Source of the DNA: Clostridia bacterium
GTDB lineage: Bacteria > Bacillota > Clostridia > Oscillospirales > CAG-272
DNA: 64,000 nucleotides
NCBI GenBank assembly: GCA_017453285.1
Contig: JAFTKL010000008.1
Span: forward strand, 14,434 to 78,433
Direction of reading: 5' to 3'
Shown: one piece after another, positions 1-15,966 of the stretch
Layout: each line of letters begins with the position of its first letter
Numbering within the stretch: position 1 is the first letter of the stretch
The notes under the pieces: model-generated
Seen by the model: the letters and a program-made list of their open reading frames with translations, nothing else
Told to the model about the DNA's origin: nothing
The model's database searches: none
Made by a program: the position numbers and the translations under genes

Positions 1-262
1 CAAGAACGTCATTTATGTTGAGTATAGTTCCATCGGGAAGATCAGCCTTATTTACCTGAACCTCTTCGAGCTTTGCATTGGTAACCTTCGTACCGCGCTT
101 GATATTTTCTTTGAGTCTTACTACGGTCACCTTTTCCTCATTGGAAGCACCGTTCTCCCCTGCGGGATCGTCGTTCTTATTGCAGGAAACGAGAAATCCG
201 CCGCACAGCATAAGAAGACAAAGCAATATGCAAACTGTATTTCTGAATATATTTTTCTTCAT
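1..262 (-). CDS. BH0: N-terminal part of a further SAF-like/beta-helix lipoprotein paralog. The gene runs off the left edge.
   Basis: Manual minus-strand translation from the ATG at 262-260 gives MKKNIFRNTVCILLCLLMLCGGFLVSCNKNDD (signal peptide plus LVSC lipobox). It continues VTVVRLKENIKRGTKVTNAKLEEVQV, colinear with the BH2 N-terminus. It is absent from the ORF track because no stop lies inside the window. It starts 20 nt after the BH1 stop. Confidence 0.75.
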   Translation of the reverse strand, partial: MKKNIFRNTVCILLCLLMLCGGFLVSCNKNDDPAGENGASNEEKVTVVRLKENIKRGTKVTNAKLEEVQVNKADLPDGTILNINDVL

Positions 263-282
263 ATCGATCATTCTCCTTTTAA

Positions 283-1704
283 TCATTCAAACCAATGTAC
301 CTTGCCGCGAAGGAACTTCTCGTAAGTATTGTCCGAGACCGCATTAACGTCAAATATCGGATCAAGAATACTTCCCTTTCCGTCCGTTCCGGAGAGTGAC
401 AAGAACTTGCACTGCTCAGCCGGAGCAGTGTAGAAGGCAGATACCGATCTTGCGACCGAATTCCAATTGTAAGAAGAGATAGCTACTTGGGTCTTATCTG
501 CAAAGTCCTCGGTCCATCTCGCCACACAAGACATAAGAAATGAGGTTGTGGACGAAATATTGAACGCGACACCGAAGTTGGTTGCACTGCAGTTATCGAA
601 CCAGTTTCTGCTTCCGTTATCCTGGAAGCCGTAGCAACGTTCGTACATGCTCTGCAGCTTCTTATTCATATTGAAGGTTACGTGGATATCGCGGATGAGG
701 TTTGCCGCGGTGTCGATCTTAACGCCGACCTGGACGTTAGAGATACGCATATTGGAGTATGTATTATCCCATCCTGCGATATGGAGTCCTATCGAGTTTC
801 TCTCACCGTTACCGACTATTCTGATATTCTCGATATCAGCGTCTGAAGATCCGCTGTTTGCGCCGTACTTGACGTAAAGTCCAACCTGGGTATTTACGAT
901 GGTAACATCCCTTACCGATGTCTCTCTTCCGTGGGCAACAACAACGCCGTTTGCCTTGCCGTTTCCATCGATGATTCCACCCTCAATATAGTAATTACTT
1001 CCGGGAACGGTGATGCTATTGAGCTGATCCTGTCCGCCGAGAAGGATCATTCCTTCGTGTGTATCATCCCAATCGTCGCTCGCCTTTATAACTGCGTTAT
1101 CCGAAAGCTTAAGAGAAACGCTTAAAAGACCGTTGGAGGGGGTTGCGATGGGCTTGGAGATAACATACTCTCCGTCAGGGAAATAGATGACCTGATTGAC
1201 GTTATCGGGGATATCTATAACCTTTTGGATCTCAGCAGAGAGATCCTTTCCCGTGTTGGGAGTAAGGTATTCGGTGATAACGATATATCCCTGCTCCTTG
1301 AAGCCCATATCGTTATCCTCGAGCTCAGCCCTCTTTACAGGCTCAACCGGCTTCTTTGCCGAGATATACTTGGAAATAAAGAAATCACCCTCTTCAAGAT
1401 CCATAAGCGGATACTTGCCGATAACTTCGTCGGGGTCCGAAATAGCACCGATCCAGGTCTCATTAATGTCTATCTTTACAAGTTCAAACTTGGAAGAGGT
1501 TATCTTGTCTCCCGCCTTGATCGGCTTCGTGACTCGCAGCACCTCTACCATATTGGGATCGGAATTGCCTGCATTCTCCGCTGCGGGCTCAGATGCGTAT
1601 GCATTACACGCGCTGAGAAGAGCAACGGAAAGCATAGTCACACAAAGCAAAAGTGCGATCATACACAGTCTTTGGTGCTTCCGCTTACTGTAGGTTTTGT
1701 TCAT
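283..1704 (-). CDS. BH1: lipoprotein with a SAF-like N-terminal module and a right-handed beta-helix (Pectate_lyase_3-like) domain. Subfamily A.
   Basis: The start was moved to MNKTYSKRKHQRLCMIALLL..LLSAC (lipobox), preceded by the RBS AAAGGAGA. The SAF-like stretch is VEVLRVTKPIKAGDKITSSKFELVKID...GKYPLMDLEEGDFF. The core shows GYIVITEYLTPNTGKDLSAEIQKVI..VIYFPDGEYVISKPI, GGIIDGNG, GRETSVRD and SSDADIENIRIVGN. Confidence 0.85.
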   Translation of the reverse strand: MNKTYSKRKHQRLCMIALLLCVTMLSVALLSACNAYASEPAAENAGNSDPNMVEVLRVTKPIKAGDKITSSKFELVKIDINETWIGAISDPDEVIGKYPLMDLEEGDFFISKYISAKKPVEPVKRAELEDNDMGFKEQGYIVITEYLTPNTGKDLSAEIQKVIDIPDNVNQVIYFPDGEYVISKPIATPSNGLLSVSLKLSDNAVIKASDDWDDTHEGMILLGGQDQLNSITVPGSNYYIEGGIIDGNGKANGVVVAHGRETSVRDVTIVNTQVGLYVKYGANSGSSDADIENIRIVGNGERNSIGLHIAGWDNTYSNMRISNVQVGVKIDTAANLIRDIHVTFNMNKKLQSMYERCYGFQDNGSRNWFDNCSATNFGVAFNISSTTSFLMSCVARWTEDFADKTQVAISSYNWNSVARSVSAFYTAPAEQCKFLSLSGTDGKGSILDPIFDVNAVSDNTYEKFLRGKVHWFE

Positions 1705-1768
1705 AATCAATTCTCCTTTCATAACACAATTTTCACCTAAAGCGAAAGTTTGCATTATCTATCAATGT

Positions 1769-1797
1769 ATTATAACATGCAAGCCTCACAAAGTCAA
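1769..1797 (-). promoter_or_regulatory. Sigma-A type promoter for BH1-BH0
   Basis: On the minus strand: TTGACT (1797-1792), 17-nt spacer, TATAAT (1774-1769). It lies about 65 nt upstream of the BH1 ATG. Confidence 0.6.
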
Positions 1798-1843
1798 TAC
1801 TTTTAATTATTTGTTGATTATTTTTGTACACTTTGCACAAAAG

Positions 1844-1870
1844 AAAGCTGCCGCTTTTAGCGACAGCTTT
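1844..1870 (-). terminator. Intrinsic terminator after BH2
   Basis: The hairpin pairs aaagctgccgct with agcgacagcttt (one mismatch, 3-nt loop). On the minus strand it is followed by CTTTTGTG. It sits 15 nt past the BH2 stop. Confidence 0.55.
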
Positions 1871-1884
1871 AAGGTGAATTTTAT

Positions 1885-3276
1885 TCAATTGACGATCGGG
1901 TCGTTGATAAGGTAATCTTTAGCCACGTCTCGCTCCGAAACCTTATGAACTTTGTATGCAGCACCGTCTATAGTACCGCTGCCGCCCTCCTCTCCGACGA
2001 GAAGAAAATTACATTCAATTCCCTCGGAGTTTATTCCGAATTCAGCGTCAGCCATACGGATCACCGCGTCAAACTTGCCCTCGCAGACAAACGCGTTGTG
2101 GTAGCCGTAGCCTTCGGTATACCAATAATTGAAGCAGCAGTCAAACATCGATCTGTTGCCCTCGACGAGATAAAATCCTGTTGAGAACTGATCGTTATAG
2201 CAGTTGTCGTAGAAGTTACGCGTACCGCCGTCATAAAAGGCAATACTGTCAACATAATTCTCTTCAGCCTTCAGCCCGCTTCTGAAAACGTATAGCGGAT
2301 GGAGATTGCGCAAGAAGTTTCCGTCACCGAGCAGCTTTATGCATATCTGATTTGCCGCGATACGCATATTTGTAAGAGTGTTGTTGTCGGTCTCAAGTAT
2401 AACGCCGACCGAGTCGAGCGTTCCGCTGCCGATGATGTTTGTGGTCACAACATCGACCGTCGGTCCGTTTCCGTTCTCGTCAGCTTTTACGTGTATTCCA
2501 ACCACTGCGTACTTGATAGCTGAGTATCTGATAGAAACGTTTCCGCCTCCAACCACCCAAATAGCATCCGCACGATTGTTGCCGTCGAGAATTCCGCCCT
2601 CAAACACAACGCCGTTCTCTGCGTCGGGCTCGTCACTCGCCTCGCCCTTCGCTCCTATCTTGAAGAGCGGCTCGCCGTAGGTCCAATTGTCCATAGGCTT
2701 GAACTGTGCGTAGTTTGAGAACTTGAAAGATACCTTTTTGTCGGGATCTGCCGAGGTCTCGATCGGCTTTGAAAGCATATATATTCCGTCGGGGAAATAG
2801 AGCGTGCGATTGGGATTTTCGTCGATAAGCTTCTGTATCGCATCTGACGCGTCGTTTTTCGGGTCGGGCTTGAGGTAGTCCGAGACGAGCACGTAGCCTG
2901 CGTCGGCAAAGTTGAGTTCGTTGTTCTCTTCTTTTTCGTCATCCTCTACGGCAGGCTTCTTGGATGAGATCTTCTCCGCGCTGAAAAAGTCGCCCGCGAA
3001 GATCTGTGCAGTCGCAAATTTTCCTACGACGTCCCCTTCTGTGCTCAAAGCACCATCCGGAACGACGGAGGCGTCCATAACCACGACCTCCACTTTATCA
3101 CTCGTTATTTTCGTGCCTGCCTTGATTCCCTCCTTGGCTCTGACCACGTTTACATTGTTACCGCTGAGAGTCGCCTCGGGATCATTATTGCAGGATACGA
3201 GCGCACCGCAAAGCAGCATCGAAAGACACAGCAGAGTGCTAACAAGGGCTTTTGCAAATTTATTTATTTTCATCAT
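1885..3276 (-). CDS. BH2: SAF-like/beta-helix lipoprotein paralog. Subfamily B, the most divergent.
   Basis: The N-terminus is MMKINKFAKALVSTLLCLSMLLCGALVSCNND (lipobox). The SAF-like stretch is VNVVRAKEGIKAGTKITSDKVEVVVMD..GKFATAQIFAGDFF. The core shows GYVLVSDYLKPDPKNDASDAIQKLIDENPNRTLYFPDGIYMLSKPI, GGILDGNN and DNNTLTNMRIA. Confidence 0.85.
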   Translation of the reverse strand: MMKINKFAKALVSTLLCLSMLLCGALVSCNNDPEATLSGNNVNVVRAKEGIKAGTKITSDKVEVVVMDASVVPDGALSTEGDVVGKFATAQIFAGDFFSAEKISSKKPAVEDDEKEENNELNFADAGYVLVSDYLKPDPKNDASDAIQKLIDENPNRTLYFPDGIYMLSKPIETSADPDKKVSFKFSNYAQFKPMDNWTYGEPLFKIGAKGEASDEPDAENGVVFEGGILDGNNRADAIWVVGGGNVSIRYSAIKYAVVGIHVKADENGNGPTVDVVTTNIIGSGTLDSVGVILETDNNTLTNMRIAANQICIKLLGDGNFLRNLHPLYVFRSGLKAEENYVDSIAFYDGGTRNFYDNCYNDQFSTGFYLVEGNRSMFDCCFNYWYTEGYGYHNAFVCEGKFDAVIRMADAEFGINSEGIECNFLLVGEEGGSGTIDGAAYKVHKVSERDVAKDYLINDPIVN

Positions 3277-3295
3277 CTTTTCTCCTTTGCTTCAA

Positions 3296-4693
3296 TCACT
3301 TGATGCTGCTCGATCTCAGATATTGCTTGTAAACGTCGCTATTTACGGCATTCTCGTCGAATATCGGATCGTATATATAGCCGCGTCCTTCTCTTTGTAC
3401 AACGAGAAAATCGCATTTCTCTTTAGGTGCCGTAAATTCTGCCGTAAGCGAGCGAACAACTCCGTTGAACTGTCCGTGAGTCGCGGTGAGCGCGACCTGC
3501 CGTCCGCTGCCGTAGACCTCACCCCAACTTGCCACGCAATTCGTCATCGTATCACCGTGATGAGCAAGCGAAAAGGCGGTAGAAAATCCCTCGCTGACGC
3601 AGGAATCAAACCAGCATCTGTGATCTCGGCTGAGAAATCCGTAGCTTGCCTCATAGACCGGATCGAGTCTGAAATTGGATACGTACTTCACGCGGATATT
3701 ACGGAAGATATGCGCGGGAGCGTCACATCTGACACCGATCTGGACGTTGGAGATGCGAAAATTCGTAAAGGTGCTGTCCGATCCCTCAACGTGAAGTCCG
3801 ATAGAGCCGGGCGCACCGTTTCCTATGATAGTGATATTCTCTGCATCCGAGTCTACCACGTTGCCTAAGTTATTGAAGTGAACGCCCGTTACGGTATTGA
3901 TGACCGTAAGGTTTCTTATCGAGGTCTCTCTGCCGTATTCTATCGAAATGCCGTCAGCTCTGCCATTTCCGTCGATAATTCCACCCTCAATATAGTAGTT
4001 TGCACCGATGATATCAATATTGTTGGTGGTATCATTTTTACCGAGCTGTATCATCGCACCGTTCAGTTTGTTCCAATCGTCGCTTGCCTTGATGACCGCG
4101 TTCGGTGCGAGCTTGAGCGAGATGCTCCTGGTGCCCGCGGACGACGTCATAATCGGCTTAGAGATAATATACTCACCGTCGGGAAAATAGATGACCTTAT
4201 TGATGCTCGTTGGCTTACTTATGATCTTTCTGATCTCTTCTATCAGATCGTTGCCGCCGTTAGGCGTGAGATAATCGGTGACTACAACGACTCCCTGCCC
4301 ACGAAAGCCAAAATCGTTTTTCTCAAGCTCTACCTCGACCTTCTCGGGTTCAGGCTTTTCGTCAGACAGATACGCGCCGATCAAGTAATCGCCCGCTTCA
4401 AGATCTGTCAGCGCGTACTTGCCTCTGATCAAAGCTTGATCGCTTATCGCGCCAACGGCTGCTTCGTTCTTTCCAACCCTCACCTCTTCGTACTTCGACG
4501 AAGTGATCTTCTCGCCCCTTGCAACGTCCTCGGTCAAGCGTATGACCGTAACGATGGGATCGTCGGCAAGATCTTCGCCCACGTCCTGCTTATTGCAAGC
4601 CGAGAGCGCAAATGTCAGCAGAAGAGCGCAAACGAGAGTAAGTGCGAGAGCGCGCGGACTTCTCTTTCTTTTGATTTTGCGAATGAATGCCAT
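3296..4693 (-). CDS. BH3: SAF-like/beta-helix lipoprotein paralog. Subfamily A.
   Basis: The N-terminus is MAFIRKIKRKRSPRALALTLVCALLLTFALSACNKQ (lipobox). The SAF-like stretch is VTVIRLTEDVARGEKITSSKYEEVRV..GKYALTDLEAGDYL. The core is colinear with BH1 (VIYFPDGEYIISKPI, GGIIDGNGRADG, GRETSIRN). Its stop is 19 nt before the BH2 start. Confidence 0.85.
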   Translation of the reverse strand: MAFIRKIKRKRSPRALALTLVCALLLTFALSACNKQDVGEDLADDPIVTVIRLTEDVARGEKITSSKYEEVRVGKNEAAVGAISDQALIRGKYALTDLEAGDYLIGAYLSDEKPEPEKVEVELEKNDFGFRGQGVVVVTDYLTPNGGNDLIEEIRKIISKPTSINKVIYFPDGEYIISKPIMTSSAGTRSISLKLAPNAVIKASDDWNKLNGAMIQLGKNDTTNNIDIIGANYYIEGGIIDGNGRADGISIEYGRETSIRNLTVINTVTGVHFNNLGNVVDSDAENITIIGNGAPGSIGLHVEGSDSTFTNFRISNVQIGVRCDAPAHIFRNIRVKYVSNFRLDPVYEASYGFLSRDHRCWFDSCVSEGFSTAFSLAHHGDTMTNCVASWGEVYGSGRQVALTATHGQFNGVVRSLTAEFTAPKEKCDFLVVQREGRGYIYDPIFDENAVNSDVYKQYLRSSSIK

Positions 4694-4771
4694 TCTAACA
4701 TTCTCCTTCGTATTTATTGCAAGAGGCTCGGTCAGCCGCTGCCGACCGAGCCGTGTGATAAGATCTTTCGA

Positions 4772-5794
4772 TCACTTTCTCCAGACTACTCTGTTTACCA
4801 GATATTCGCTGTAATCGTCTCCGCCGTCAAGATTTACGTCGAAGTTGGGCAGATCGAGAACTCCGCCGCCGCCTGCCTCGCCTACCTTGAGGTACGCGCG
4901 GTTGGTTACGTCGCTGCGAAGGTCAACGCGGTAGCTCTTGACGATAGAATTGAACTTTCCGTCGGAAAGGAAGCCTACCTGCTTGTCGCCGCGGTTGGAG
5001 TACCAATAAGCGTAGCAATCGGTGTAGGTCGACATAGTGTGACCGCTGGTGCGGAATCCGGTCGCAAAGTTATCGGGATAGCAGATCTCGTACCAGTTGC
5101 CGCCGCTTACATCCCAGAAGCCGATGCTGTCCTTATAGTCGTAATTGTCGCTGTAGATATAGAGGTTGTGGAGATATCTCAAGAAGTTACCTGCACCGCC
5201 GAGCTTTGTGCCGATCTCAAAGCCTGCAACACGCATATCGTTGAAGGTGTTGTCATAGCCGTCGCAGATAACGCCGATAGAGCCGGGGAGATTCATACCT
5301 ACGATGTGTACGTTCTCGATGTCCGCGTCGTTAGAGCCGTATTCCTTGTTGTACTTTACGTTAATTCCCTGCGTTACGAATTTAATGGAAAGATTTCTGA
5401 TGCAGGTCTCGCGTCCGCCGTCGATAGAAACGCCCTTTGCAACTCCGCTGCCGTCGATGCATCCGCCTGCGAGATAGTAGTTTGTACCCGTCTCCCAGAT
5501 GGTGAACTTCTTATTGAGCGCGCCGAGTCTGATCATAGCCTCGTCACTCGACCAATCCTTAGTTGCCTTGATAACTGCAAAATTGGAGAGGTTAAGAGAC
5601 ACCGCGTACTTTGCGTCGCTCGAGGTACAGAGCGGCTTCGAGATCATATATTCACCGTCGGGGAAATATATGGTTTTTCTGGGGTTGGAGTCGATGATAT
5701 TCTGCAGAGCATCTGCGAGGTCCTCGCCCGTGTTTGCCTTAACGTAATCCGTCACTACTACGTATCCAAGATCTTTTGCGTTTACTTCACTCAT
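4772..5794 (-). CDS. BH4: leaderless short beta-helix paralog. Subfamily C core, closest to BH10/BH11.
   Basis: It begins MSEVNAKDLGYVVVTDYVKANTGEDLADALQNII..TIYFPDGEYMISKPL, with the RBS GGAGG upstream and no signal peptide. The C-terminal block ICYPDNFATGFRTSGHTMSTYTDCYAYWY nearly matches BH10. Confidence 0.85.
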   Translation of the reverse strand: MSEVNAKDLGYVVVTDYVKANTGEDLADALQNIIDSNPRKTIYFPDGEYMISKPLCTSSDAKYAVSLNLSNFAVIKATKDWSSDEAMIRLGALNKKFTIWETGTNYYLAGGCIDGSGVAKGVSIDGGRETCIRNLSIKFVTQGINVKYNKEYGSNDADIENVHIVGMNLPGSIGVICDGYDNTFNDMRVAGFEIGTKLGGAGNFLRYLHNLYIYSDNYDYKDSIGFWDVSGGNWYEICYPDNFATGFRTSGHTMSTYTDCYAYWYSNRGDKQVGFLSDGKFNSIVKSYRVDLRSDVTNRAYLKVGEAGGGGVLDLPNFDVNLDGGDDYSEYLVNRVVWRK

Positions 5795-5861
5795 TTTTAA
5801 TTCCTCCGTTATTATATTTTGTATCGAATATCAATTTTACGGTGTAATATCCGTTTGGTTC

Positions 5862-5890
5862 ATTATACCATATCAAAAAAAGCAAGTCAA
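5862..5890 (-). promoter_or_regulatory. Sigma-A promoter for BH4. It overlaps the BH5 terminator.
   Basis: On the minus strand: TTGACT (5890-5885), 17-nt spacer, TGgTATAAT extended -10 (TATAAT at 5867-5862). Confidence 0.65.
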
Positions 5891-5917
5891 TTCCTTTTGG
5901 GAAAATCAGACTTGCTT
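5880..5917 (-). terminator. Intrinsic terminator after BH5
   Basis: The stem pairs aagcaagtc (5880-5888) with gacttgctt (5909-5917), plus inner ttcc/ggaa pairs. A T6 run follows on the minus strand. An A-run on the other side makes it look bidirectional. Confidence 0.65.
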
Positions 5918-5963
5918 TTTTGAAAAATTTTTATATTTTTATGCAGTTTTTACAAAAAACGAC

Positions 5964-6998
5964 TCAGATAATTCTACCCGTAACGAACTTCTTATAGGTC
6001 TTATCGGTAACGAGGTTATCATCAATGATGGGATTGTCGATAAATCCGTGTCCGCCTGCGTTCTCGGGAAGAACGAGAACTGCGTTATTTGTGGTGTCTC
6101 CTCTGAAGTGGATCTTGGGGTTGGTGATGGAAGCGTTGAAGTCGCCGTCACACTGGAAGCCGACCTCCTTGTTTCCTCTGGGGGAGTACCACATAATGAA
6201 TGCGTTCACGATAACAGCCTTGGAACCGGGGATGAGCTTGTAGCCGGTAGCCATCTGATCGCTGTAGCAGTAGTCGTACCAGTTGGTGCCCGATACTTCC
6301 TCAAGGAACGCGATGCTGTCCTCGAAGTTTATGTCGTCCTCTGCGTACTCGTAGCCGTAGATGAAGAGCGGGTGGATATTGCGCAGGCAGTTTCCGCCGC
6401 TGCGGAGCTTGATACCGACCTCGATAGCAGCTATACGCATATTGGTAAGAGTGTTGTCGTAGCCCTCGATAAGAACGCCGACAGAGCCCTTCTTATTGTT
6501 ACCTACGATATTTACGGTCTCGATATCAGCGTCGGACGAGCCGTTGTTTGCGCCGCGCTTGATGTGGATACCGATAAAGGTGTGCTTGATGGATACGTTG
6601 CGGATAGAGGTCTCACGTCCAGAGTCGATCGAGATGCCGTTTGCAACGCCGTTTCCGTCAACGATACCGCCCGCGAAGGAGTAGTTGCTTCCGTTGCGGT
6701 AGATGGTGTTATAAGGCTCAGCCGCGCCGAGACGAACCATAGCCTCGGTGTGATCCCAACCGTCAGCAGCCTTGAGGATCGCGAAGTTGGAGAGCTGAAG
6801 AGATACTGCGGTCTCGGGCTTGCCCGAGGTGCAGATCGGCTTTGCGAGGATATACTCGCCGTCGGGGAAATATATTGTTCTCATGGGGTTCTCGTCGATG
6901 ATCTTCTGGATGGCATCAGACACGTCCTTACCCGTGTTTGCCTCAAGATAATCGGTTACTACTACGTAGCCGAGAGCGTTTGCGTTGATATCGTTCAT
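5964..6998 (-). CDS. BH5: leaderless short beta-helix paralog. Subfamily D.
   Basis: It begins MNDINANALGYVVVTDYLEANTGKDVSDAIQKIIDENPMRTIYFPDGEYILAKPICTS. The core shows GGIVDGNGVANGISIDSGRETSIRNVSIKHT, SSDADIETVNIVGN and GYDNTLTNMRIA. The RBS is GGAGG and there is no signal peptide. Confidence 0.88.
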   Translation of the reverse strand: MNDINANALGYVVVTDYLEANTGKDVSDAIQKIIDENPMRTIYFPDGEYILAKPICTSGKPETAVSLQLSNFAILKAADGWDHTEAMVRLGAAEPYNTIYRNGSNYSFAGGIVDGNGVANGISIDSGRETSIRNVSIKHTFIGIHIKRGANNGSSDADIETVNIVGNNKKGSVGVLIEGYDNTLTNMRIAAIEVGIKLRSGGNCLRNIHPLFIYGYEYAEDDINFEDSIAFLEEVSGTNWYDYCYSDQMATGYKLIPGSKAVIVNAFIMWYSPRGNKEVGFQCDGDFNASITNPKIHFRGDTTNNAVLVLPENAGGHGFIDNPIIDDNLVTDKTYKKFVTGRII

Positions 6999-7048
6999 TG
7001 TTTTTTCCTCCGTTTAGAGATTTTTCGGCCTTTGCCGTTCTTATAGTA

Positions 7049-7077
7049 ATTATAACATACAAAAAATAGCAAGTCAA
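7049..7077 (-). promoter_or_regulatory. Sigma-A promoter for BH5. It overlaps the BH6 terminator.
   Basis: On the minus strand: TTGACT (7077-7072), 17-nt spacer, TATAAT (7054-7049). Confidence 0.65.
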
Positions 7078-7103
7078 TCACTTTTTTGCAATTGACCTGC
7101 TAT
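7066..7103 (-). terminator. Intrinsic terminator after BH6
   Basis: A 13-bp stem pairs atagcaagtcaat (7066-7078) with attgacctgctat (7091-7103), with one mismatch. It is flanked by A and T runs. Confidence 0.6.
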
Positions 7104-7119
7104 TTTTTAGTTTAATACC

Positions 7120-8133
7120 TTAATTTCTGTGGACCACGTGGCCTACGAGGTAATCCTTATAGGTCTCGTCGTCGCAGTTCTCGGGGGTAAAGATCGGGTT
7201 CTCTACGATTCCGAGTCCGCCGCTCTCGCTGACCTTGAGGAACGCGCGGTTAGCGCAGTCGCCGCGAAGTGCGATATTTGCGTTGCAGATGCTTGCGGCA
7301 AACTTGCCCTCTTCGCACTCAAATCCGACGTACTTAACTCCGCGGTTGGAGTACCACATACCAAAACAATGCTGGAATATGGGAGTTGCTCCGCCCTTGA
7401 ATCTGAAGCCGGTTGCCATTTCGTCGCTGTAGCAGTAGCTGTACCAGTTGTTGCCCCAGCTCTGATCGTCGAACGCGATACTCTTGGACTGATCGACCTC
7501 TCCGCCGTAAATAAAGAGCGGATGGATGTCGCGCAGCGAGTTGCCCGCACTCTTCATAAGAATACCTGTCTGAACCGACGCGATACGCATATTGCGCACT
7601 GTGTTATCGTAACCCTCGAGGAAAACTCCGACAGAATTTTCCTTGTTGTTACCTACGACGTTTACCATCTCGATATCCGAGTCGGACGAGCCGTTGTTTG
7701 CGCCGCGCTTTACGTGAATACCGATCTGTGTATTCTTGATAGAAACGTGAGAGATCAGAGTCTCGCGTCCCGAGTCTACCGAGATACCGTTTGCAACGCC
7801 GTTTCCGTCGATGATACCGCCCTTGAAGTGATAGTTACTTCCGGGGATGGTGATGCTGTTGAAGGGATAGATTCCGCCCATACGGACGAGTGCCTCGGGG
7901 CTGTCCCAGCCGTCTGCCGCCTTGATGATAGCAAAGCAGGAAAGCTCGAGAGATACTGCGATCCTCGGGTCTGCGGGGGTGCAGATCGGCTTTGCGAGCA
8001 CGTATTCACCGTCGGGGAAATAGATAGTCTTGTGGGGGTTGTCGTTGATTATCTGCTGAAGCGCGTCCGAAACATCCTTGCCGGTGTTAGCTTCGATATA
8101 GTCTGTAACTACTACGTAATTTTTGTTTTCCAT
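7120..8133 (-). CDS. BH6: leaderless short beta-helix paralog. Subfamily D.
   Basis: The start was moved to MENKNYVVVTDYIEANTGKDVSDALQQIINDNPHKTIYFPDGEYVLAKPICTP, with the RBS GAAAGGA 8 nt upstream. The longer track ORF would overlap the BH7 stop. Confidence 0.85.
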   Translation of the reverse strand: MENKNYVVVTDYIEANTGKDVSDALQQIINDNPHKTIYFPDGEYVLAKPICTPADPRIAVSLELSCFAIIKAADGWDSPEALVRMGGIYPFNSITIPGSNYHFKGGIIDGNGVANGISVDSGRETLISHVSIKNTQIGIHVKRGANNGSSDSDIEMVNVVGNNKENSVGVFLEGYDNTVRNMRIASVQTGILMKSAGNSLRDIHPLFIYGGEVDQSKSIAFDDQSWGNNWYSYCYSDEMATGFRFKGGATPIFQHCFGMWYSNRGVKYVGFECEEGKFAASICNANIALRGDCANRAFLKVSESGGLGIVENPIFTPENCDDETYKDYLVGHVVHRN

Positions 8134-8159
8134 AATATTTTCCTTTCTATTGAGAAATA

Positions 8160-9179
8160 TCAGCCTCTCCAATCGGGCATAAGGTAATCCTCGTGCGTTT
8201 TATCCGTCATATTGTCAACGCGCGATATCGGGAGATATATTATTCCCTTTCCGCCTGCTTCTCCGACTACCAAGAACGCCTTATTCGTAGCGCTGTCCTT
8301 GCATCTTACGTAGGAATTGCGAATAACGGAATTAAATTGACCGGAGCTCTCGTATCCGTGCTGTTTTCCGCCTCTGTCGGTGTACCAATAGCAATAGCAA
8401 TCGCTGTATGTGTTTATCGAATTTCCCTGCATATAAAATCCCGTAGCGAACTGATCGCTGTAGCAATTATTATACCAATTGATCGAGTTAACACAGTCAA
8501 GGAAGCCTATACTGTTCGCATATACCTCAGGATCGGCAAGCTCGCCGTCAAATATATACAGCGGATGCAGATTTTTCATTATCTGCGCCGAGCTATTCTG
8601 TATCTTAACTCCTATCTGGACTCCCGCGATACGCATATTGGTAAAGGAATTGTCACTTCCCTCAATAAGCATGCCAATAGAGCCTGCCTTACAGTTACCG
8701 ACGATATTCACGTTGAGTATATCAGCATCCGAGGAGTTTCCATTAGCACCTTTTTTGATATGCAGACCAATCGAGGTATGCTTTATTGAAGTGCCCTCTA
8801 TGCGAGTCTCACGTCCGCTCTCGATAGCAATACCCTGAGCCACGCCGTTTCCGTCAATGATACCGCCGCAAACCCTGTAGTTACTGCCGTTTTTCATTAT
8901 GGTATTGAAGGGCTCTGCCGCACCGAGTCTTATCATAGCCTCTTCGCTGTCCCATCCGTCTGCTGCCTTGACGGTGGCAAAATCCGAAAGCATAAGCGAG
9001 ACCGCGTTTGCAGGATTTGCAGGTGTGCAGATCGGCTTTGCGATAATATACTCACCGTCGGGGAAATATATAGTCCTATGAGGATTGTCGGTGATGATCT
9101 GCTGAAGAGCGTCCGAGACGTCTTTACCGCTATTCGCCTCGATATAGTCTGTAACTACTACGTATCCCTGGTTATTCAT
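8160..9179 (-). CDS. BH7: leaderless short beta-helix paralog. Subfamily D.
   Basis: It begins MNNQGYVVVTDYIEANSGKDVSDALQQIITDNPHRTIYFPDGEYIIAKPICTP. The core shows GGIIDGNGVAQGIAIESGRETRIEG, SSDADILNVNIVGN and GSDNSFTNMRIA. Confidence 0.88.
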   Translation of the reverse strand: MNNQGYVVVTDYIEANSGKDVSDALQQIITDNPHRTIYFPDGEYIIAKPICTPANPANAVSLMLSDFATVKAADGWDSEEAMIRLGAAEPFNTIMKNGSNYRVCGGIIDGNGVAQGIAIESGRETRIEGTSIKHTSIGLHIKKGANGNSSDADILNVNIVGNCKAGSIGMLIEGSDNSFTNMRIAGVQIGVKIQNSSAQIMKNLHPLYIFDGELADPEVYANSIGFLDCVNSINWYNNCYSDQFATGFYMQGNSINTYSDCYCYWYTDRGGKQHGYESSGQFNSVIRNSYVRCKDSATNKAFLVVGEAGGKGIIYLPISRVDNMTDKTHEDYLMPDWRG

Positions 9180-9192
9180 AGCTTACCTCTTC

Positions 9193-10218
9193 TCAAAGAT
9201 TTGTCATATCCTTGTCTACGACGTACTTCTTGTAAGTATGGTCAGTGAACTGCTCGGGCAATACCAGCGGATAGCTGATAGTTCCCTGTCCGCCCTCCTG
9301 AGTTTCGGTCAGATATGCCTTGAACTCGCACTCGTGGCGGTCGAAGACGTTGCAGCTACGGAGCACAGAGTTGAATCTGCCGTCTGCGTGGAATCCGACA
9401 GCCTTGCCTCCTCTGCCCGTGTACCAATAGCAGATGCAATCGGTATAGATCTGGCGCGCGCCGTCTTTCATACGGAAGCCGACTGCGAACTGATCGCTGT
9501 AGCAGCAGTTATATATGCTGTGGAACCAGGTATCGTCCCAGAACGCGCAGCTTGCCTTGAATACCTCGTCCTTCTCGAGATCGCCTCTGAAGGTATAGAG
9601 AGGATGGATATTCTTCATGAGCTGAGAAGATGCAAGTATCTTAAATCCGAACTGAACGCCCGCGATACGCATATTGGTAAAGCTGTTGTCCGAGCCCTCG
9701 ATGAGCACGCCGACCGAGCCTTCCTTGCAGTTGCCCACGATATTTACGTTCTGCACGTCAGCATCCGAGGAGTTCGAGTTTGCGCCGTGCTTGATGTGAA
9801 TTCCGACGAAGGTATTCTTGATCGACACCTTCTCGATAAGAGTCTCGCGTCCCGAGTCGATAGAAATTCCCTTTGCAACTCCGCTTCCGTCGATGATACC
9901 GCCGAAGATGCCGTAGTTGCTTCCGTTTATTCTGATATTGTTGAAGGGCTCAGCCGCGCCGAGACGAACCATAGCCTCGTCGCTGTCCCATCCGTCTGCC
10001 GCCTTGAGAGTCGCGAACTTGGAAAGCTCGAGATTTACCGCGTTAGCTCCGTTTGCAGAAGTGCAGATCGGCTTAGAAAGGATATACTCTCCATCTGGGA
10101 AATATATCGTTCTGTGGGGATTTTCGTCAATTATCTTCTGTATTGCATCCGATACATCCTTGCCGGTGTTAGCCTCGACGTAGTCGGTTACAACTACGTA
10201 GCCTCTGTTTTCGATCAT
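9193..10218 (-). CDS. BH8: leaderless short beta-helix paralog. Subfamily D.
   Basis: It begins MIENRGYVVVTDYVEANTGKDVSDAIQKIIDENPHRTIYFPDGEYILSKPICTS. The RBS is AAAGGAGAGAGG. A 13-nt gap separates it from BH7. Confidence 0.88.
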   Translation of the reverse strand: MIENRGYVVVTDYVEANTGKDVSDAIQKIIDENPHRTIYFPDGEYILSKPICTSANGANAVNLELSKFATLKAADGWDSDEAMVRLGAAEPFNNIRINGSNYGIFGGIIDGSGVAKGISIDSGRETLIEKVSIKNTFVGIHIKHGANSNSSDADVQNVNIVGNCKEGSVGVLIEGSDNSFTNMRIAGVQFGFKILASSQLMKNIHPLYTFRGDLEKDEVFKASCAFWDDTWFHSIYNCCYSDQFAVGFRMKDGARQIYTDCICYWYTGRGGKAVGFHADGRFNSVLRSCNVFDRHECEFKAYLTETQEGGQGTISYPLVLPEQFTDHTYKKYVVDKDMTNL

Positions 10219-10236
10219 AGCCTCTCTCCTTTACTT

Positions 10237-11253
10237 TTATATTACTCTGCCTACGAGATACTGCTTATAGGTCTCGTCGGTCACTCTCTCTGTGATGGGA
10301 TTTTCGATAAATCCGTGTCCGCCCTCTTCTGCAACCGTGATATACGCGTTGTTATCGTTGCTGTTGCGGTTGAAGTGAACTCTGCAATCGCGGATGATCG
10401 AATTGAACTTTCCGTCTACCTTGAAGCCTCTCTCGAGTCCGTCAGCCTTGTACCAATAGCAGAAGCAGTCAGCATATGTCAGTCTTGCGCCGTCTTTCAT
10501 ACGGAAACCTGTCGAGAACTGATCGCTGTAGCAGTTGTTGTACCAGACCTCGTGATTTGTGTCGTCCCAGAATGCACAGCTCTCTGCGTAGCGACCTGCA
10601 AGACCTGCGTCGTAGGTGTAGAGCGGATGGAGATTCTTGAGGAACTGCGAGGGAGCGAGTATCTTGAAACCGATCTCGATGTGAGCGATACGCATATTCG
10701 TAAAGGTGTTGTCGCAACCCTCGATCAGCACGCCGATAGACTCGGGCTGACCGTTACCTACGATATTTACGTTCATAATATCGGCATCCGAGGAGTTGGA
10801 ATTTGCTCCGTGCTTGATGTGGATACCTATCTGTGTATTTTTAATAGATACCTCGCGAATGAGAGTCTCTCTGCCGCTGTCGACCGACACGCCGTTAGCA
10901 ACGCCGCTTCCGTCGATGATACCGCCGATAATACCGTAGTTACTTCCGTTTACGGTTATGGTATTAAAGGGCTCTGCCGCGCCCAGACGCACGATAGCCT
11001 CCTTCTCGGTCCAATCCTTCGATGCCTTGAGAGTGGCGAACTTGGAAAGCTCGAGCGATACCGCGTTTACGGGGTTCGCCGAGGTACAGATCGGCTTCGA
11101 GAGGATATATTCGCCGTCGGGAAAATATATCGTTCTGTGCGGATTTTCATTGATGATCTTCTGAAGCTCGTCCGAGACGTCCTTGCCGGTGTTAGCCTCA
11201 ACGTAGTCTGTGACCACCACGTATCCGAATGCATTTGCATTGATATCTTTCAT
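10237..11253 (-). CDS. BH9: leaderless short beta-helix paralog. Subfamily D; first gene of the BH9-BH6 operon.
   Basis: The start was moved to MKDINANAFGYVVVTDYVEANTGKDVSDELQKIINENPHRTIYFPDGEYILSKPICTS, with the RBS AAAGGAGGT upstream. Confidence 0.85.
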   Translation of the reverse strand: MKDINANAFGYVVVTDYVEANTGKDVSDELQKIINENPHRTIYFPDGEYILSKPICTSANPVNAVSLELSKFATLKASKDWTEKEAIVRLGAAEPFNTITVNGSNYGIIGGIIDGSGVANGVSVDSGRETLIREVSIKNTQIGIHIKHGANSNSSDADIMNVNIVGNGQPESIGVLIEGCDNTFTNMRIAHIEIGFKILAPSQFLKNLHPLYTYDAGLAGRYAESCAFWDDTNHEVWYNNCYSDQFSTGFRMKDGARLTYADCFCYWYKADGLERGFKVDGKFNSIIRDCRVHFNRNSNDNNAYITVAEEGGHGFIENPITERVTDETYKQYLVGRVI

Positions 11254-11294
11254 TTTTTTACCTCCTTTGGTGGCAATTGCCACTTATTGAGTTC

Positions 11295-11323
11295 ATTATA
11301 ACACACAAAAAAAAGCAAGTCAA
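11295..11323 (-). promoter_or_regulatory. Sigma-A promoter for BH9-BH8-BH7-BH6. It overlaps the BH10 terminator.
   Basis: On the minus strand: TTGACT (11323-11318), 17-nt spacer, TATAAT (11300-11295). Confidence 0.65.
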
Positions 11324-11347
11324 TTCCTTTTGAGAAATTGACTTGCT
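11314..11347 (-). terminator. Intrinsic terminator after BH10
   Basis: A perfect 12-bp stem pairs agcaagtcaatt (11314-11325) with aattgacttgct (11336-11347). A T8 run follows on the minus strand. Confidence 0.7.
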
Positions 11348-11368
11348 AAATTTTTGATAGATTTTTTA

Positions 11369-12754
11369 TCAGCCGCCCCAGACTACCTTGCCGACGAGGT
11401 AATCCTTATAGGTGTCGTCATCGCACGCACCTACGGGGAATGCGGGATATTCAACGATGCCGTTGCCGCCCTCTTCACCGACGATCATAAATCTGCCGTC
11501 GGTCTGCGTCTCAAGGTCAACTCGGTAGTTCTTGAGGACAGAGTTGAACTTTCCGTCGGATGCAAAACCGTACTGCTTCTGTCCCTCTTCTTTTTTGTAC
11601 CAATAAGCGTAGCAGTTGTTATACACCGACATAGTGTGACCGCTGGTACGGAATCCGATAGCGAAGTTGTCGGGATAGCAGATATCGTAGGTGTTGCCCT
11701 CGCTCGTATCCCAGAAGCCTATACTGTCGCTGTAGTCGTAGTTGCTTGTGTAGATGAAGAGCATATGGAGATTGCGGAATATATTGTTCTTTCCGTTAGC
11801 CTTGGTAGCTACCTGGAAGCTTGCTACTCTCATATTGGTAAAGGTATTTCCGTCGCTGTCAACGAGAACTCCGACAGAGTCGGGAAGATTGCAGCCGACG
11901 ATGTTTACCGTCTCAATATCAGCGTAGCTCGAGGGGCTCTCGTCGTTGAGCGCGATGTGAAGTCCCTGCGTAACGAACTTGATCGATACGTATCTCACCG
12001 AGGTCTCAAGTCCGCCTGCGACCTCAACACCTCTTGCCTTATTAGAGCCGTCAATGCAACCGCCCTCCATGTAGTAGTTGCTTCCTACCTCGTCGACCGT
12101 AAATGTCTTGTCCTTAGCGCCGAGCTGGATCATATATCCGTTAGCATCATCCCAATCCGAAGCCGCCTTGATAATAGCAAAGGTCGAAAGTCTGAGTGAA
12201 ACTGCCTTGGCGGGATCGCTCGAGGTGATAAGAGGCTTGGAGATCAAATATTCTCCGTCGGGGAAATAGATAGTGGTATTGGGGTTCTCGTCGATGATCT
12301 TCTGAAGCTCTGCCGAAACGTCCTTGCGGGCATTTATTCTTATGTAGTCGGTAACTACTACGTAGCCCTTGGCTTTTGCGGTCTCTGCGTCAAGCTCTTC
12401 CTCGGGTTCTTCCTTTGAGGTTGTCTTTTTCTCGAGCATAGAGTCAGTAATGATGTCTCCCGCCTTAACGTCGACAAGGAGCTTTCTGCCGATAGCATCG
12501 GTCGCTTTGCTGAGATATCCTTCGGGTGCACTCGCCGCATCGACCTCTACCGTCTCAAGAGACACAATGCCAAAGGATGAACCTGCGGCAACATCAGTCT
12601 TTGCCTTAACGACTCTTACAAGAAGAGTGCTCTCCTGCTCGGATGGCTGTTCCTCCCCTCCGCCGTTGCAAGCACAGAGCGCAAGCATAACTACCGCAAG
12701 TACTGTGCACACGACAGTTCTGAATAATTTATTTATCGAAAATCTGTTTTTCAT
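11369..12754 (-). CDS. BH10: SAF-like/beta-helix lipoprotein paralog. Subfamily C.
   Basis: The N-terminus is MKNRFSINKLFRTVVCTVLAVVMLALCACNGGGEE (lipobox-like). The SAF-like stretch is LLVRVVKAKTDVAAGSSFG...GRKLLVDVKAGDIITDSML. An acidic linker follows, then GYVVVTDYIRINARKDVSAELQKIIDENPNTTIYFPDGEYLISKPL. Confidence 0.85.
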   Translation of the reverse strand: MKNRFSINKLFRTVVCTVLAVVMLALCACNGGGEEQPSEQESTLLVRVVKAKTDVAAGSSFGIVSLETVEVDAASAPEGYLSKATDAIGRKLLVDVKAGDIITDSMLEKKTTSKEEPEEELDAETAKAKGYVVVTDYIRINARKDVSAELQKIIDENPNTTIYFPDGEYLISKPLITSSDPAKAVSLRLSTFAIIKAASDWDDANGYMIQLGAKDKTFTVDEVGSNYYMEGGCIDGSNKARGVEVAGGLETSVRYVSIKFVTQGLHIALNDESPSSYADIETVNIVGCNLPDSVGVLVDSDGNTFTNMRVASFQVATKANGKNNIFRNLHMLFIYTSNYDYSDSIGFWDTSEGNTYDICYPDNFAIGFRTSGHTMSVYNNCYAYWYKKEEGQKQYGFASDGKFNSVLKNYRVDLETQTDGRFMIVGEEGGNGIVEYPAFPVGACDDDTYKDYLVGKVVWGG

Positions 12755-12772
12755 ATCTTCACCTCTTTACAA

Positions 12773-14131
12773 TCAACTGTTCCAGATTACATTTCCTACA
12801 AGATGGTTCACATAGCTGGTATTGTGCACCTTGCTCTTATCGAATATCGGATATTGAATAACTCCCTTTCCGCCTTCAGCACCGAGGTCAAGGAACATAC
12901 AATTCGCGTCATCCCCAAACTCCGCTCTGAAGTTGGAAACTATCGAGCTAAGACGTCCGTCGGTCGCGATAGCGGTCTGTGATGTCGCCTCGGGAGACGT
13001 CCAGCTTGCAGTGCAGTCGTTCATCATATCAAGCGCTCCGCCTCTGATTCTGAAGCCCACACGGAAGCCCTCGGCGTGAAATCCGTCCATCCAATTGCTT
13101 CCATTGGAATCAAGAAATCCGATACTGTCATTATAATCCCAGCTATCTCTGTGCTCGTAAACTGCGTGAACGTTGTGCATAAGGTTGCCTGCTTTTGTCA
13201 TCTGCATTCCGATCTCAAAGCCGCTGATGCGGATATCGGTCAGCGTGTTGTCAAGTCCGTCAACGTGAACGCCGATCGAACCGGGGAGATAGCAGCCCTC
13301 GATGTCTATAGCCTCGAAGTCGCAGTCGTTAGAGCCGTATGCCTGATTGTAAGCGATCTTGAGGCCCTGAGTTACGTTCTTGATCGAGATCTGACGGACC
13401 GAGGTCTCGCGTCCGCCCTCGAGAATGATTCCCTTTGCCTTGCGGTTACCGTCGATAATGCCGCCGTACATATAGTAGTTACTGCCGGTCTGGCTGATGG
13501 TGAAGGTCTCGTCGATAGCACCGAGCTGGATCATATGCTCGGCTCCGCCTCTCCAGCGGTCAGATGCCTTGATGACCGCGAAGCTCGACAGATGCAGAGA
13601 GACCGCCTTCTGAGGATTACTCGAGGTCTTAATTGGCTTTTCTATCGTATAAACTCCGTCGGGAAAGAAGATAGTCTTTCTCGGGTTCTTGTCGATGATC
13701 TCCTGGATCTTGTCGGTCAGGTTCTCGCCCGTGTTCGCGTCAAGATAATCGGTAACGACCACAAAACCAAGCTTTTTTGCAAGCGGAATAGTTATATTCG
13801 AGGTATCGACCTCCTTTTTCTCGGCAAGCATAGACTCTCCGATAACGTCGCCCGCCTTAATGTCAACGAGAAGCGTGCGTCCGACTATTTCACTCGTCTT
13901 GATAAGATAGTCATCGGGAGCGAGAGTTCTTTCGACCTCAACTACCTCAACGTCCTTTATTCCAAGGGCCTTTCCCGCCACCGCATCGACCTTCGTGCGA
14001 AGGGCCTTTACGAGCAACTTGGGTGCCTCTGTCTCTACCGCTTCTCCGCCGCCGTTACACGAGCAGGCGAGAAACACGGTCAGAACGAGAAGCACAAGGG
14101 CGAGCGCCTTGATAACCGTTCTTTTTTTCAT
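12773..14131 (-). CDS. BH11: SAF-like/beta-helix lipoprotein paralog. Subfamily C.
   Basis: The N-terminus is MKKRTVIKALALVLLVLTVFLACSCNGGGEA. The SAF-like stretch is LLVKALRTKVDAVAGKALG..GRTLLVDIKAGDVIGESML. The core begins GFVVVTDYLDANTGENLTDKIQEIIDKNPRKTIFFPDGVYTIEKPI. Its stop is 18 nt before the BH10 start. Confidence 0.85.
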   Translation of the reverse strand: MKKRTVIKALALVLLVLTVFLACSCNGGGEAVETEAPKLLVKALRTKVDAVAGKALGIKDVEVVEVERTLAPDDYLIKTSEIVGRTLLVDIKAGDVIGESMLAEKKEVDTSNITIPLAKKLGFVVVTDYLDANTGENLTDKIQEIIDKNPRKTIFFPDGVYTIEKPIKTSSNPQKAVSLHLSSFAVIKASDRWRGGAEHMIQLGAIDETFTISQTGSNYYMYGGIIDGNRKAKGIILEGGRETSVRQISIKNVTQGLKIAYNQAYGSNDCDFEAIDIEGCYLPGSIGVHVDGLDNTLTDIRISGFEIGMQMTKAGNLMHNVHAVYEHRDSWDYNDSIGFLDSNGSNWMDGFHAEGFRVGFRIRGGALDMMNDCTASWTSPEATSQTAIATDGRLSSIVSNFRAEFGDDANCMFLDLGAEGGKGVIQYPIFDKSKVHNTSYVNHLVGNVIWNS

Positions 14132-14192
14132 AGCTCTTTCCTTTCGAAAATATTTCTACCAAAAAGCAGATGCAAGATCTGCATACATAATC

Positions 14193-14221
14193 ATTTTACC
14201 ATAAAAAAACTGCCGTGTCAA
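14193..14221 (-). promoter_or_regulatory. Sigma-A promoter for BH11-BH10, inside DR1
   Basis: On the minus strand: TTGACA (14221-14216), 17-nt spacer, TGgTAAAAT (TAAAAT at 14198-14193). A small leader hairpin, gcagat/atctgc plus T5, lies at 14166-14182. Confidence 0.6.
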
Positions 14222-14291
14222 TACAAATCTTCTAAGCGACTTTGAGCCGAATTTTGCTCTTTTTTAACAATTCTTTGTTTTATAGAAAATT

Positions 14292-14318
14292 CCGCCTGCC
14301 GAGATTTTCGGCAGGCGG
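14292..14318 (-). terminator. Intrinsic terminator (DR1 copy) just after the lipoprotein gene
   Basis: A perfect 9-bp stem pairs ccgcctgcc with ggcaggcgg around a 9-nt loop. AATTTTCTAT follows on the minus strand. Confidence 0.6.
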
Positions 14319-14323
14319 TGGGG

Positions 14324-15232: not shown

Positions 15233-15783
15233 TTACTGCAAATTTAAGTATTGAAACCCTTCGCCGCGATAATCCAACGGTAACTCAGATCTATATTCCA
15301 ATTGTGAACTCCCTTTATCACCAACTATAACAAAGACACCTCCAACCTTATCCGTTGCTTCCTCAATCGACTCGTTGATATTATATCCCTTATTGATGTT
15401 GTCTAAAAAATATTCAAGCCAATCATTTGTATTCGGTATACGTACCTGTTCAGTAAAGCCTAAAACAAAGTGAGCACCTTTGTTAAAAGTTTCATCTAAC
15501 AAACAAGAAATACCAGAAACAGAACTATAATTTTCATATGCCCAACCAAAGTAACCTAAATCATCCATGGTTTCACATAATAATCAACATTTTCGGTAGT
15601 ATCAAATGGCACATGTAAACCATATTCATAATGCATGTAATTGAAAGCAAATATCTCCGCATATCTTTTTTCAACCGCCATAAATGACCAATAGCATGCC
15701 GCTGTCTCTGTTGGGCTAAGATAAACATTACCACTCTCATCTTGCGCAACATATTTTGTACCTTTCGAGAATATTTCTGCCAA
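15233..15783 (-). pseudogene. 5'-truncated and frameshifted gene remnant (two overlapping ORF fragments)
   Basis: The 75-aa fragment (15556-15783) and the 111-aa fragment (15233-15568) overlap by 13 nt at CCATGGATGATTTAG in frames one nt apart. The upstream reading frame runs into DR2 with no ATG or RBS; only a TTG is available there. The RBS inherited from the repeat points at a different, junk-looking frame. Confidence 0.5.
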
Positions 15784-15813
15784 AAAGCAGATGCAAGAGC
15801 TGCATACATAACT

Positions 15814-15842: not shown

Positions 15843-15912
15843 CACAAACCTTCTAAGCAACCTTGAGGCGAATTTTTCTCTTTTTTAACAATTCTTTGTT
15901 TTATAGAAAATT

Positions 15913-15939: not shown

Positions 15940-15966
15940 CGTGTAAATATAAGGTTTGGAGAAAGC

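Follow-up and report, generated by a model that had tools for sequence, protein, structure and literature searches.

Leaderless cores and predicted surface lipoproteins in a tandem beta-helix gene array of a Clostridia bacterium

Mixtures of secreted and non-secreted isoenzymes have been described among glycoside hydrolases (GH). Geobacillus has two GH10 xylanases, the extracellular XT6 and the intracellular IXT6. In the Gram-positive polysaccharide utilization loci (gpPULs) of Roseburia, three GH53 genes lie in one locus, two of them encoding a signal peptide and the carbohydrate-binding module (CBM) CBM61 (PMC5320581). Here, we describe a tandem array of beta-helix genes in a stretch of 64,000 nucleotides from a Clostridia bacterium (contig JAFTKL010000008.1, positions 14,434 to 78,433 of the forward strand; hereafter the window), in which long forms with a lipobox and a SAF domain are combined with leaderless short forms. 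The array is like the GH loci in that nearby paralogs differ by a signal peptide and an accessory domain. It differs in comprising 17 paralogs, in having no adjacent transporter or regulator, and in carrying an anchor of lipobox and SAF rather than signal peptide and CBM, and enzymatic activity is only predicted here. An earlier note on this DNA held such a mixture to be odd for glycan enzymes. We do not share this view: secreted and non-secreted isoenzymes are known in gut Firmicutes, as the GH53 trio illustrates (PMC5320581), so that mixed topology is not anomalous by itself, and leaderless copies are the common form of the present family in Clostridia.

The explanation that fits best, and to which we would give about an even chance of being right, is that of a tandem beta-helix family with surface-lipoprotein long forms and cytoplasmic short cores, the 5´ module of which has been swapped by recombination. 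The long forms would be Sec-dependent lipoproteins processed by signal peptidase II (SPII), in which the SAF domain (a beta-clip) and an acidic linker hold the core off the membrane at the cell surface. The short forms would be bare cores, strongly expressed from their own near-consensus sigma-A promoters, and would stay in the cytoplasm for want of an export signal. The array would have grown by tandem duplication and the 5´ targeting module would have been exchanged repeatedly through recombination in the conserved GYVVVTDY...IYFPDGEY region; the gene here called G4 would be a long-type body that received its promoter and short N-terminus from a short paralog. Surface forms would diversify fast against external glycans, and cytoplasmic forms would be conserved, acting on an internal or internalised substrate.

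The paralogs, all of the beta-helix family, are arranged head-to-tail on the minus strand at 2-14131 of the window. Below, L numbers denote the genome loci compared and P numbers database proteins of the family. The same contig in the ENA assembly (L076/L084) carries six more long paralogs with lipobox and SAF (454-479 amino acids (aa); L084 11437-20153) beyond the left window edge, and the full array has 11 long and 6 short members. It ends on that side at a gene for a PnuC-like nicotinamide mononucleotide transporter and is flanked on the other by genes for a lipoprotein, a P-type ATPase and ArsR. Long forms in the window measure 452-479 aa and short forms 337-344 aa, and both contain a beta-helix core of ~335-340 aa. 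The short block G4-G9 (4772-11253) is flanked by long G1-G3 (283-4693) and G10-G11 (11369-14131). The features are:

2..286, minus strand: G0, C-terminal end of a long paralog (479 aa in the full contig; full gene in L076/L084), cut by the window edge; matches the family hidden Markov model with E=2.7e-14
283..1722, minus strand: G1, long form with lipobox LSAC, SAF and core; 479-aa product confirmed by the gene caller
1885..3276, minus strand: G2, long form with lipobox LVSC, SAF and core
3296..4693, minus strand: G3, long form with lipobox LSAC, SAF and core; without a predicted upstream promoter and probably read through from the G4 promoter
4772..5794, minus strand: G4, leaderless short form (MSEVNAKDLGYVVVTDY), its body related to long G10; ratio of nonsynonymous to synonymous substitution rates (dN/dS) 0.03 against L007
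5858..5925, minus strand: hairpin and T-run overlapping a near-consensus promoter (TTGACT-17-TATAAT, TG-extended), upstream of G4
5964..6998, minus strand: G5, leaderless short form, its own transcription unit
7045..7108, minus strand: terminator-like hairpin, the 3´ arm of which carries the -35 box of the G5 promoter
7120..8133, minus strand: G6, leaderless short form (MENKNYVVVTDY) starting MENKNY, last gene of the predicted G9-G6 operon; 337-aa gene call
8160..9179, minus strand: G7, leaderless short form; modelled by AlphaFold2 as a complete beta-helix (predicted local distance difference test score (pLDDT) 95.1, predicted template modelling score (pTM) 0.93)
9193..10218, minus strand: G8, leaderless short form
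10237..11253, minus strand: G9, leaderless short form (MKDINANAFGYVVVTDY) starting MKDINANAF, first gene of the predicted G9-G6 operon; 338-aa gene call
11291..11354, minus strand: terminator-like hairpin 3´ of G10, overlapping the G9 promoter (TTGACT-17-TATAAT)
11369..12754, minus strand: G10, long form with lipobox LCAC, SAF at residues 46-108, linker and core; AlphaFold2 pLDDT 92.9
12773..14131, minus strand: G11, long form with lipobox ACSC, SAF and core, first gene of the array; promoter at 14221-14193

The absence of an export module from the short genes is well supported. Each starts with ATG 4-9 residues ahead of G/N-YVVVTDY and has in-frame stops 5-26 codons upstream of the core. The gaps upstream of these genes measure 13-169 bp, too little for a hidden signal and SAF module of ~120 aa, and together with the stops they exclude upstream starts or exons that could have been overlooked. 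The Pfam scan (SAF PF08666, gathering score 21 bits) recognised the domain in all long forms listed (G1 25.0, G2 37.1, G3 24.5, G10 40.5 and G11 30.0 bits, leaving aside the truncated G0) and in none of the six short forms. A rule-based lipoprotein scan, which is a pattern test only (positive n-region, hydrophobic h-region and a lipobox Cys within the first ~20-35 residues), found a lipobox with hydrophobic stretch in 11/11 long forms of this organism and 43/48 over all loci, and in 0/66 clostridial short forms. In the AlphaFold2 model of G10, a signal helix (residues 7-27) is followed by the SAF domain (45-110), a linker of lower confidence (111-122, pLDDT ~61) and a cap helix (123-128, ETAKAK), after which the GYVVVTDY beta-helix begins. 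The starts of the short forms coincide exactly with this cap helix. The description in the earlier note of intact, leaderless short forms cut at the domain boundary, just ahead of GYVVVTDY and with no alternative start that could supply a signal peptide, is therefore correct. Its strong ribosome-binding sites (RBSs) are found in part: every short gene has a Shine-Dalgarno sequence, of GGAGG type in G4, G5, G8 and G9 and weaker in G6 and G7.

The short genes are functional, as seen from their pattern of substitution, their near-consensus promoters and the complete beta-helix modelled for G7 alone. The window stems from a metagenome-assembled genome of a ruminant-gut Clostridia bacterium, Oscillospiraceae-like, and the closest relatives in these searches were L007 (Clostridia bacterium RGIG9137) and L001 (Oscillospiraceae SIG681). 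Against the L007 orthologs, the short genes have dN/dS of 0.01-0.04 at dS 0.16-0.29, and against those of L001 0.06-0.11 at dS 0.7-1.2. With promoters and RBSs also in place, they are not the unexpressed pseudogenes that the earlier note had allowed for. The long forms, predicted to be at the surface, evolve faster than the short ones: relative to L007, long forms have dN of 0.010-0.052 and short forms of 0.004-0.010, the best L001 match of G10 is 63% identical and those of the short genes 84-92%, and long forms make up the majority of the family representatives at 50% identity.

G9, G5 and G4 each have a TG-extended, near-consensus promoter (TTGACT-17-TATAAT), which overlaps a hairpin and T-run that would terminate the upstream gene. 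Within the window, this hairpin-promoter element is confined to the array, and the predicted transcription units are G11-G10, G9-G8-G7-G6, G5, G4(-G3-G2) and G1 onwards. In the conserved 5´ region of the short genes, a T-rich spacer separates the -35 box (TTGACTTGCT) from a TG-extended TATAAT; after ~10 nt come a small GC-rich hairpin with some compensatory changes and then AAAA and the RBS ACGGAGGA. The region is also found in L001, L007, L009, L014, L017, L019, L026, L035, L050, L057 and L068, and in arrays the -35 box doubles as the 3´ arm of the terminator hairpin of the upstream gene. Of 30 matches to the pattern, 22 precede a leaderless family gene, at a distance of 65-125 nt from its core start. 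RNAalifold analysis of the hairpin in the 5´ untranslated region gave only 4 pairs with modest covariation. Expression in the mother cell during sporulation was considered as a reason for the absent signals and rejected as an inference; the promoters are of sigma-A type. The G4-G3 spacer (4694-4771) has a GC-rich hairpin (GGCTCGGTC...GACCGAGCC) that lacks a clear T-run, and promoter prediction gave nothing there; on these grounds, short G4 and long G3 and G2 may share one transcript.

The ancestry of G4 is of special relevance to the proposed exchange of modules. Its core is 59% identical to that of G10, 49% to G11 and 47-52% to the other short genes, such that the closeness to both long genes claimed in the earlier note holds for G10 but not, in terms of identity, for G11. 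In neighbour-joining trees of 81-98 cores, rooted on Bacteroidota and with 60 bootstraps, the G4 orthogroup, drawn from 5 genomes, comes out as monophyletic (60/60). It joins long forms and leaves out G5-G9 in 58-60/60, whether the whole core, the first 200 columns or the last 129 columns are used; its sister is the long form L014_5631 (55/60). G4 thus falls outside the main short clade, and the short forms do not make up a single clade. By Fitch parsimony on 81 sequences, 7-11 changes of N-terminal state are needed, and the earlier estimate of at least two gains or losses of the module is therefore borne out and probably too low. To judge from these trees, N-terminal modules have been exchanged several times in the family.

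The 5´ end of G4 tells another story than its body. The 5´ flank shares homology with the G5 and G9 flanks, with 89% identity over 47 nt to the G9 flank (D19), and the first 60-120 nt of the coding sequence are 73-77% identical to G5 and 60-63% to G10. Protein columns 1-20 favour short forms, a bias that reverses after ~column 35. Because the promoter and hairpin, the RBS and the first ~100 nt resemble G5/G9 while the body groups with long forms, the G4 lineage probably became short by recombination with the 5´ end of an existing short paralog, and not by a second independent deletion. A sliding window placed the excess similarity of G4 to G10 mainly in the C-terminal third, and the possibility that it is a mosaic artefact was rejected: trees of the N-part and of the C-part (81 sequences) both put the G4 group with long forms, and short-like sequence is confined to the 5´ flank and the first ~35 codons.

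The combination of long and short forms recurs elsewhere. Database members of the family all bear the name "hypothetical protein" and come from gut and rumen metagenomes; many measure ~340 aa and many others 440-510 aa. At the level of 50% clusters, the family has 537 representatives with E<=1e-3. In total, 160 cores were collected from 75 genome loci, and in these searches the family was restricted to gut and rumen bacteria of the Clostridia, Bacteroidota and Planctomycetes-Verrucomicrobia-Chlamydiae (PVC) groups. The search for the same mixture in other genomes, proposed in the earlier note, found it in at least nine other loci from Clostridia metagenome-assembled genomes, with mixed tandem arrays in L001, L002, L003, L004, L007, L009, L014, L017 and L019. 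The L007 array matches the window gene for gene, the order of orthologs is conserved across genomes, and the same P-type ATPase adjoins the array in several mixed-array loci. Short genes in housekeeping surroundings, without a long gene within the 15-21 kb examined, are seen in L077, L085, L086 and L087. In L077, L086 and L087 (7001-8044 region), the single leaderless gene shares a divergent neighbour encoding a radical SAM protein of ~320 aa (PF04055 and PF16199), and L077 and L086 additionally have in common an aminotransferase gene downstream, together with genes for MecA, a DinG-like helicase and PG_binding_1 proteins.

The module that targets the core, at its N-terminus, is interchangeable. 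In Bacteroidota (Alistipes, Rikenellaceae), Verrucomicrobia and Lentisphaerae, a signal peptide of signal peptidase I (SPI) or SPII type stands directly before the GYVVVTDY of the core, and Acutalibacteraceae copies have an SPI-type signal in this place. Other Clostridia have a lipobox with collagen-like repeats, a lipobox with a coiled coil, a transmembrane segment with collagen-like repeats, or a lipobox with a simple linker. Since export is plainly encoded elsewhere in the family, its absence from the short forms is informative. The collagen-like Gly-X-Y repeats that replace SAF (L009:6879-8402, L014:2564-4063, L024:9653-12411 and P0096, matching PF01391) are flanked by a repeated SAYEIAVENGFEG..EEWL motif, and in L022:9725-12375 an Ala/Glu-rich coiled coil takes the place of SAF; these stalks sit behind a lipobox or transmembrane anchor. 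They suggest that oligomeric display of the core is possible and, lying between anchor and core, recall the collagen- or coiled-coil-stalked surface proteins of Firmicutes, although no such variant is present in the window. Four database proteins (P0126, 662 aa; P0128, 697 aa; P0144, 706 aa; P0147, 1159 aa) have two or three core matches or long C-terminal extensions and are tandem-core or multidomain variants.

In Alistipes/Rikenellaceae (L025, L031 and L062, ~9900-11750), the gene is a signal-bearing single copy in a conserved housekeeping neighbourhood and not in a locus of the starch utilization system (Sus) type. The order is DapB-like, LepB-like, family gene, TruA-like (its start overlapping or abutting the stop of the family gene) and LpdA-like, the neighbours being named from N-terminal sequence only. 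The ~50% identity of these copies to those of Clostridia suggests transfer of the family between phyla in the gut.

The pectate-lyase-fold superfamily (PF12708, Pect-lyase_RHGA_epim) includes the GH55 beta-1,3-glucanases, GH87, tailspike depolymerases, the RbmB lyase and PfbA, and is the closest described relative of the core. At the N-terminal end, the motif VVTDY...D.S.AIQ..I....TIYFPDGEY finds a match in PF12708 as well as in GH55, there in the second domain. A PF12708 match is seen in every paralog scored; its gathering score of 27 bits is reached by G1 (29.1), G3 (33.1), G4 (30.0), G5 (35.9), G6 (29.6), G8 (30.8) and G9 (27.8) and missed by G2 (26.5), G7 (21.2), G10 (24.6) and G11 (22.6). 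Among themselves, the paralogs are clearly homologous. The models of G10 and G7 are right-handed parallel beta-helices with a Foldseek probability of 1.0 to GH55, GH87, tailspikes, RbmB and PfbA; solved neighbours have E values of 1e-5 to 1e-6 and TM-scores of 0.3-0.5 at 10-15% identity, and viral models give the same picture. The family differs from the characterised members in this low similarity, in the several paralogs below the Pfam cutoff, and in the lack of a recognised catalytic signature; past the N-terminal PF12708 motif, no curated CAZy-type family was matched by sequence. On the strength of the models, we regard it as an uncharacterised member of the superfamily, the fold of which suggests that the cores bind or cut glycans. 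Over 87 sequences, D166, D279 and R309 are invariant in both forms and D235, E250 and H330 nearly so (G10 numbering). Several acidic, basic and aromatic residues are invariant across long and short forms, an indication that both have one active or binding site in common; invariant Asp residues occur in FPDG and SSDADI.

The module of the long forms has its own relatives. The hydrophobic anchor and SAF align with positions 8-104 of the CpaB model TIGR03177 (CpaB/RcpC) and with the C-terminal domain of FlgA. However, the long forms score 24-34 bits against the TIGR03177 cutoff of 71, match its N-terminal ~100 positions only, lack the C-terminal domain of CpaB and carry a beta-helix on the module instead, and no pilus or flagellar genes are found near the array in the window flanks. 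Our literature search found no paper combining PF12708 with PF08666, or SAF with a beta-helix and a lipoprotein.

Taken together, we consider it most likely that the short forms are enzymes of the cytoplasm and that the long forms are their surface-displayed relatives. Several observations weigh against this explanation. The cellular location is read from sequence. No catalytic residues are assignable at the 10-15% identity of the nearest solved structures, and the best match in the PDB, at E=2.9e-6, is the pneumococcal adhesin PfbA, which is not an enzyme. Neither the array nor the single-copy short genes have a sugar transporter, a regulator or any other carbohydrate gene beside them, which leaves a role in oligosaccharide processing without support from context. 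The Cys count does not differ between short (6.0) and long (5.8) cores (p=0.56). The trees are neighbour-joining only, and recombination between paralogs can distort them. The isoelectric points of the two kinds of core differ only slightly as well, and we consider Cys content and isoelectric point uninformative as proxies for location. Sugar transporters are likewise absent from the syntenic arrays of L003, L007, L009, L014 and L017. Membership in a gpPUL (Sheridan et al. 2016) was rejected, as the array is bounded by the PnuC-like gene and by the lipoprotein, P-type ATPase and ArsR genes. Bacteroidota copies have Sec signals, some of SPI type and hence probably periplasmic, while most Clostridia copies are leaderless; this cross-phylum pattern would fit an enzyme acting on internalised glycan fragments, but the gene neighbourhoods do not support it. 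Of the proposal in the earlier note that the short forms act on imported oligosaccharides, the cytoplasmic role is what fits best, and the import of the substrate finds no transporter or regulator nearby to go with it.

One alternative is that the short forms leave the cell by a non-classical route (lysis, vesicles or a holin-like channel) and may oligomerise with the anchored long forms as tailspike-like trimers. This would agree with the position of the short block, which always adjoins long genes in arrays, with the probable co-transcription of G4 with long G3 and G2, with the likeness of the fold to trimeric tailspikes, and with the stalks of some members, which imply that oligomeric display is possible. 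We nevertheless find it unlikely. The family uses ordinary signal peptides wherever export is evident, no holin, secretion or lysis genes are present in or beside the array, and the short genes of L077, L085, L086 and L087 have no long partner within the 15-21 kb examined. Lipoproteins are exported unfolded, so that assembly would need to take place outside the cell, and the short cores are far more conserved than the long ones, which is unexpected for equally exposed partners. With no long form in the 15-21 kb examined around the short genes of several other Clostridia contigs, the co-assembly considered in the earlier note is improbable too, at least as an obligatory one. A bolder version, in which leaderless cores reach the surface by an unrecognised route and form mixed oligomers with SAF-anchored paralogs, the array serving as a combinatorial kit from which gut Clostridia build variable surface complexes that bind or cut glycans, strikes us as a long shot. 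It is also doubtful that the family is non-enzymatic, with long forms acting as PfbA-type surface adhesins and short forms having an unrelated binding or scaffolding role in the cytoplasm. The match to PfbA and the missing CAZy-type assignment speak for such a family; most structural neighbours are, however, glycanases, lyases or depolymerases, and the invariant and nearly invariant residues common to both forms are more readily explained by one active site in both than by binding surfaces that diverge.

The two remaining alternatives concern the origin of the short genes, and we think both very improbable. Tandem paralogs that share conserved segments, at least one 5´ exchange being indicated by G4, could be taken as decaying remnants or as silent donors for recombination into the long genes, as in antigenic variation. 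Donors in silent-cassette systems are promoterless, often partial, and share tracts of high identity with the expressed gene. The short genes differ in all of these respects: their frames are intact and under purifying selection, they have their own near-consensus promoters, RBSs and start codons, the order of orthologs is conserved across genomes, and DNA identity between short and long genes is mostly 60-65%, with a best patch of 80% over 176 nt, which is low for frequent conversion. The pseudogene or silent-cassette reading is therefore largely refuted. A derivation from prophage tailspike or depolymerase genes would account for the missing leaders, since phage proteins assemble in the cytoplasm, and is suggested by the resemblance of the beta-helix to tailspikes and by a weak match of G10 to a PHROG tail-spike family (E=1.8e-7). 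However, a search of 2.9 million viral contigs (IMG/VR) brought up only a single remote relative, at 27% identity, no PHROG match was obtained for the short forms, an N-terminal particle-binding domain is absent, and the chromosomal housekeeping surroundings are syntenic across genomes. Identification as a phage tailspike or capsule depolymerase was rejected on the basis of the viral contigs, the PHROG searches and the chromosomal context.

Near the first gene of the array, a 208-nt direct repeat is present at 14129-14336 and 15750-15957, with copies that are 87% identical and include a terminator hairpin (CCGCCTGCCG...CGGCAGGCGG) and a TTGACA-17-TAAAAT promoter. Between the copies is a stretch of low GC content (37%) with an unrelated lipoprotein gene, G12 (14324-15220), the product of which has a weak DUF4901/YcdB-YcdC match. 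The stretch resembles an insertion, in the course of which the regulatory region of the first gene would have been duplicated. Rfam matched one tRNA and nothing else in the window.

In conclusion, the array brings to attention an unannotated family within the beta-helix glycanase superfamily that spans Clostridia, Bacteroidota and PVC bacteria. Mixtures of secreted and non-secreted isoenzymes were known before; new are a beta-helix family with swappable targeting modules and its unusually large arrays of mixed topology, with up to 17 copies. In annotation, the leaderless copies should be treated as real genes, neither to be extended nor discarded. The family amounts to a natural experiment in protein targeting, as the same core occurs bare or with an SPI signal, a lipobox, a lipobox and SAF, a lipobox and collagen-like repeats, or a lipobox and coiled coil. 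If the cores are enzymes, they would be candidates for a new CAZy family and would offer a clean system for the division of glycan processing between surface and cytoplasm in Gram-positive gut bacteria. The significance of the array would rise sharply if surface localisation of leaderless forms, or an enzymatic activity that is new, were demonstrated.

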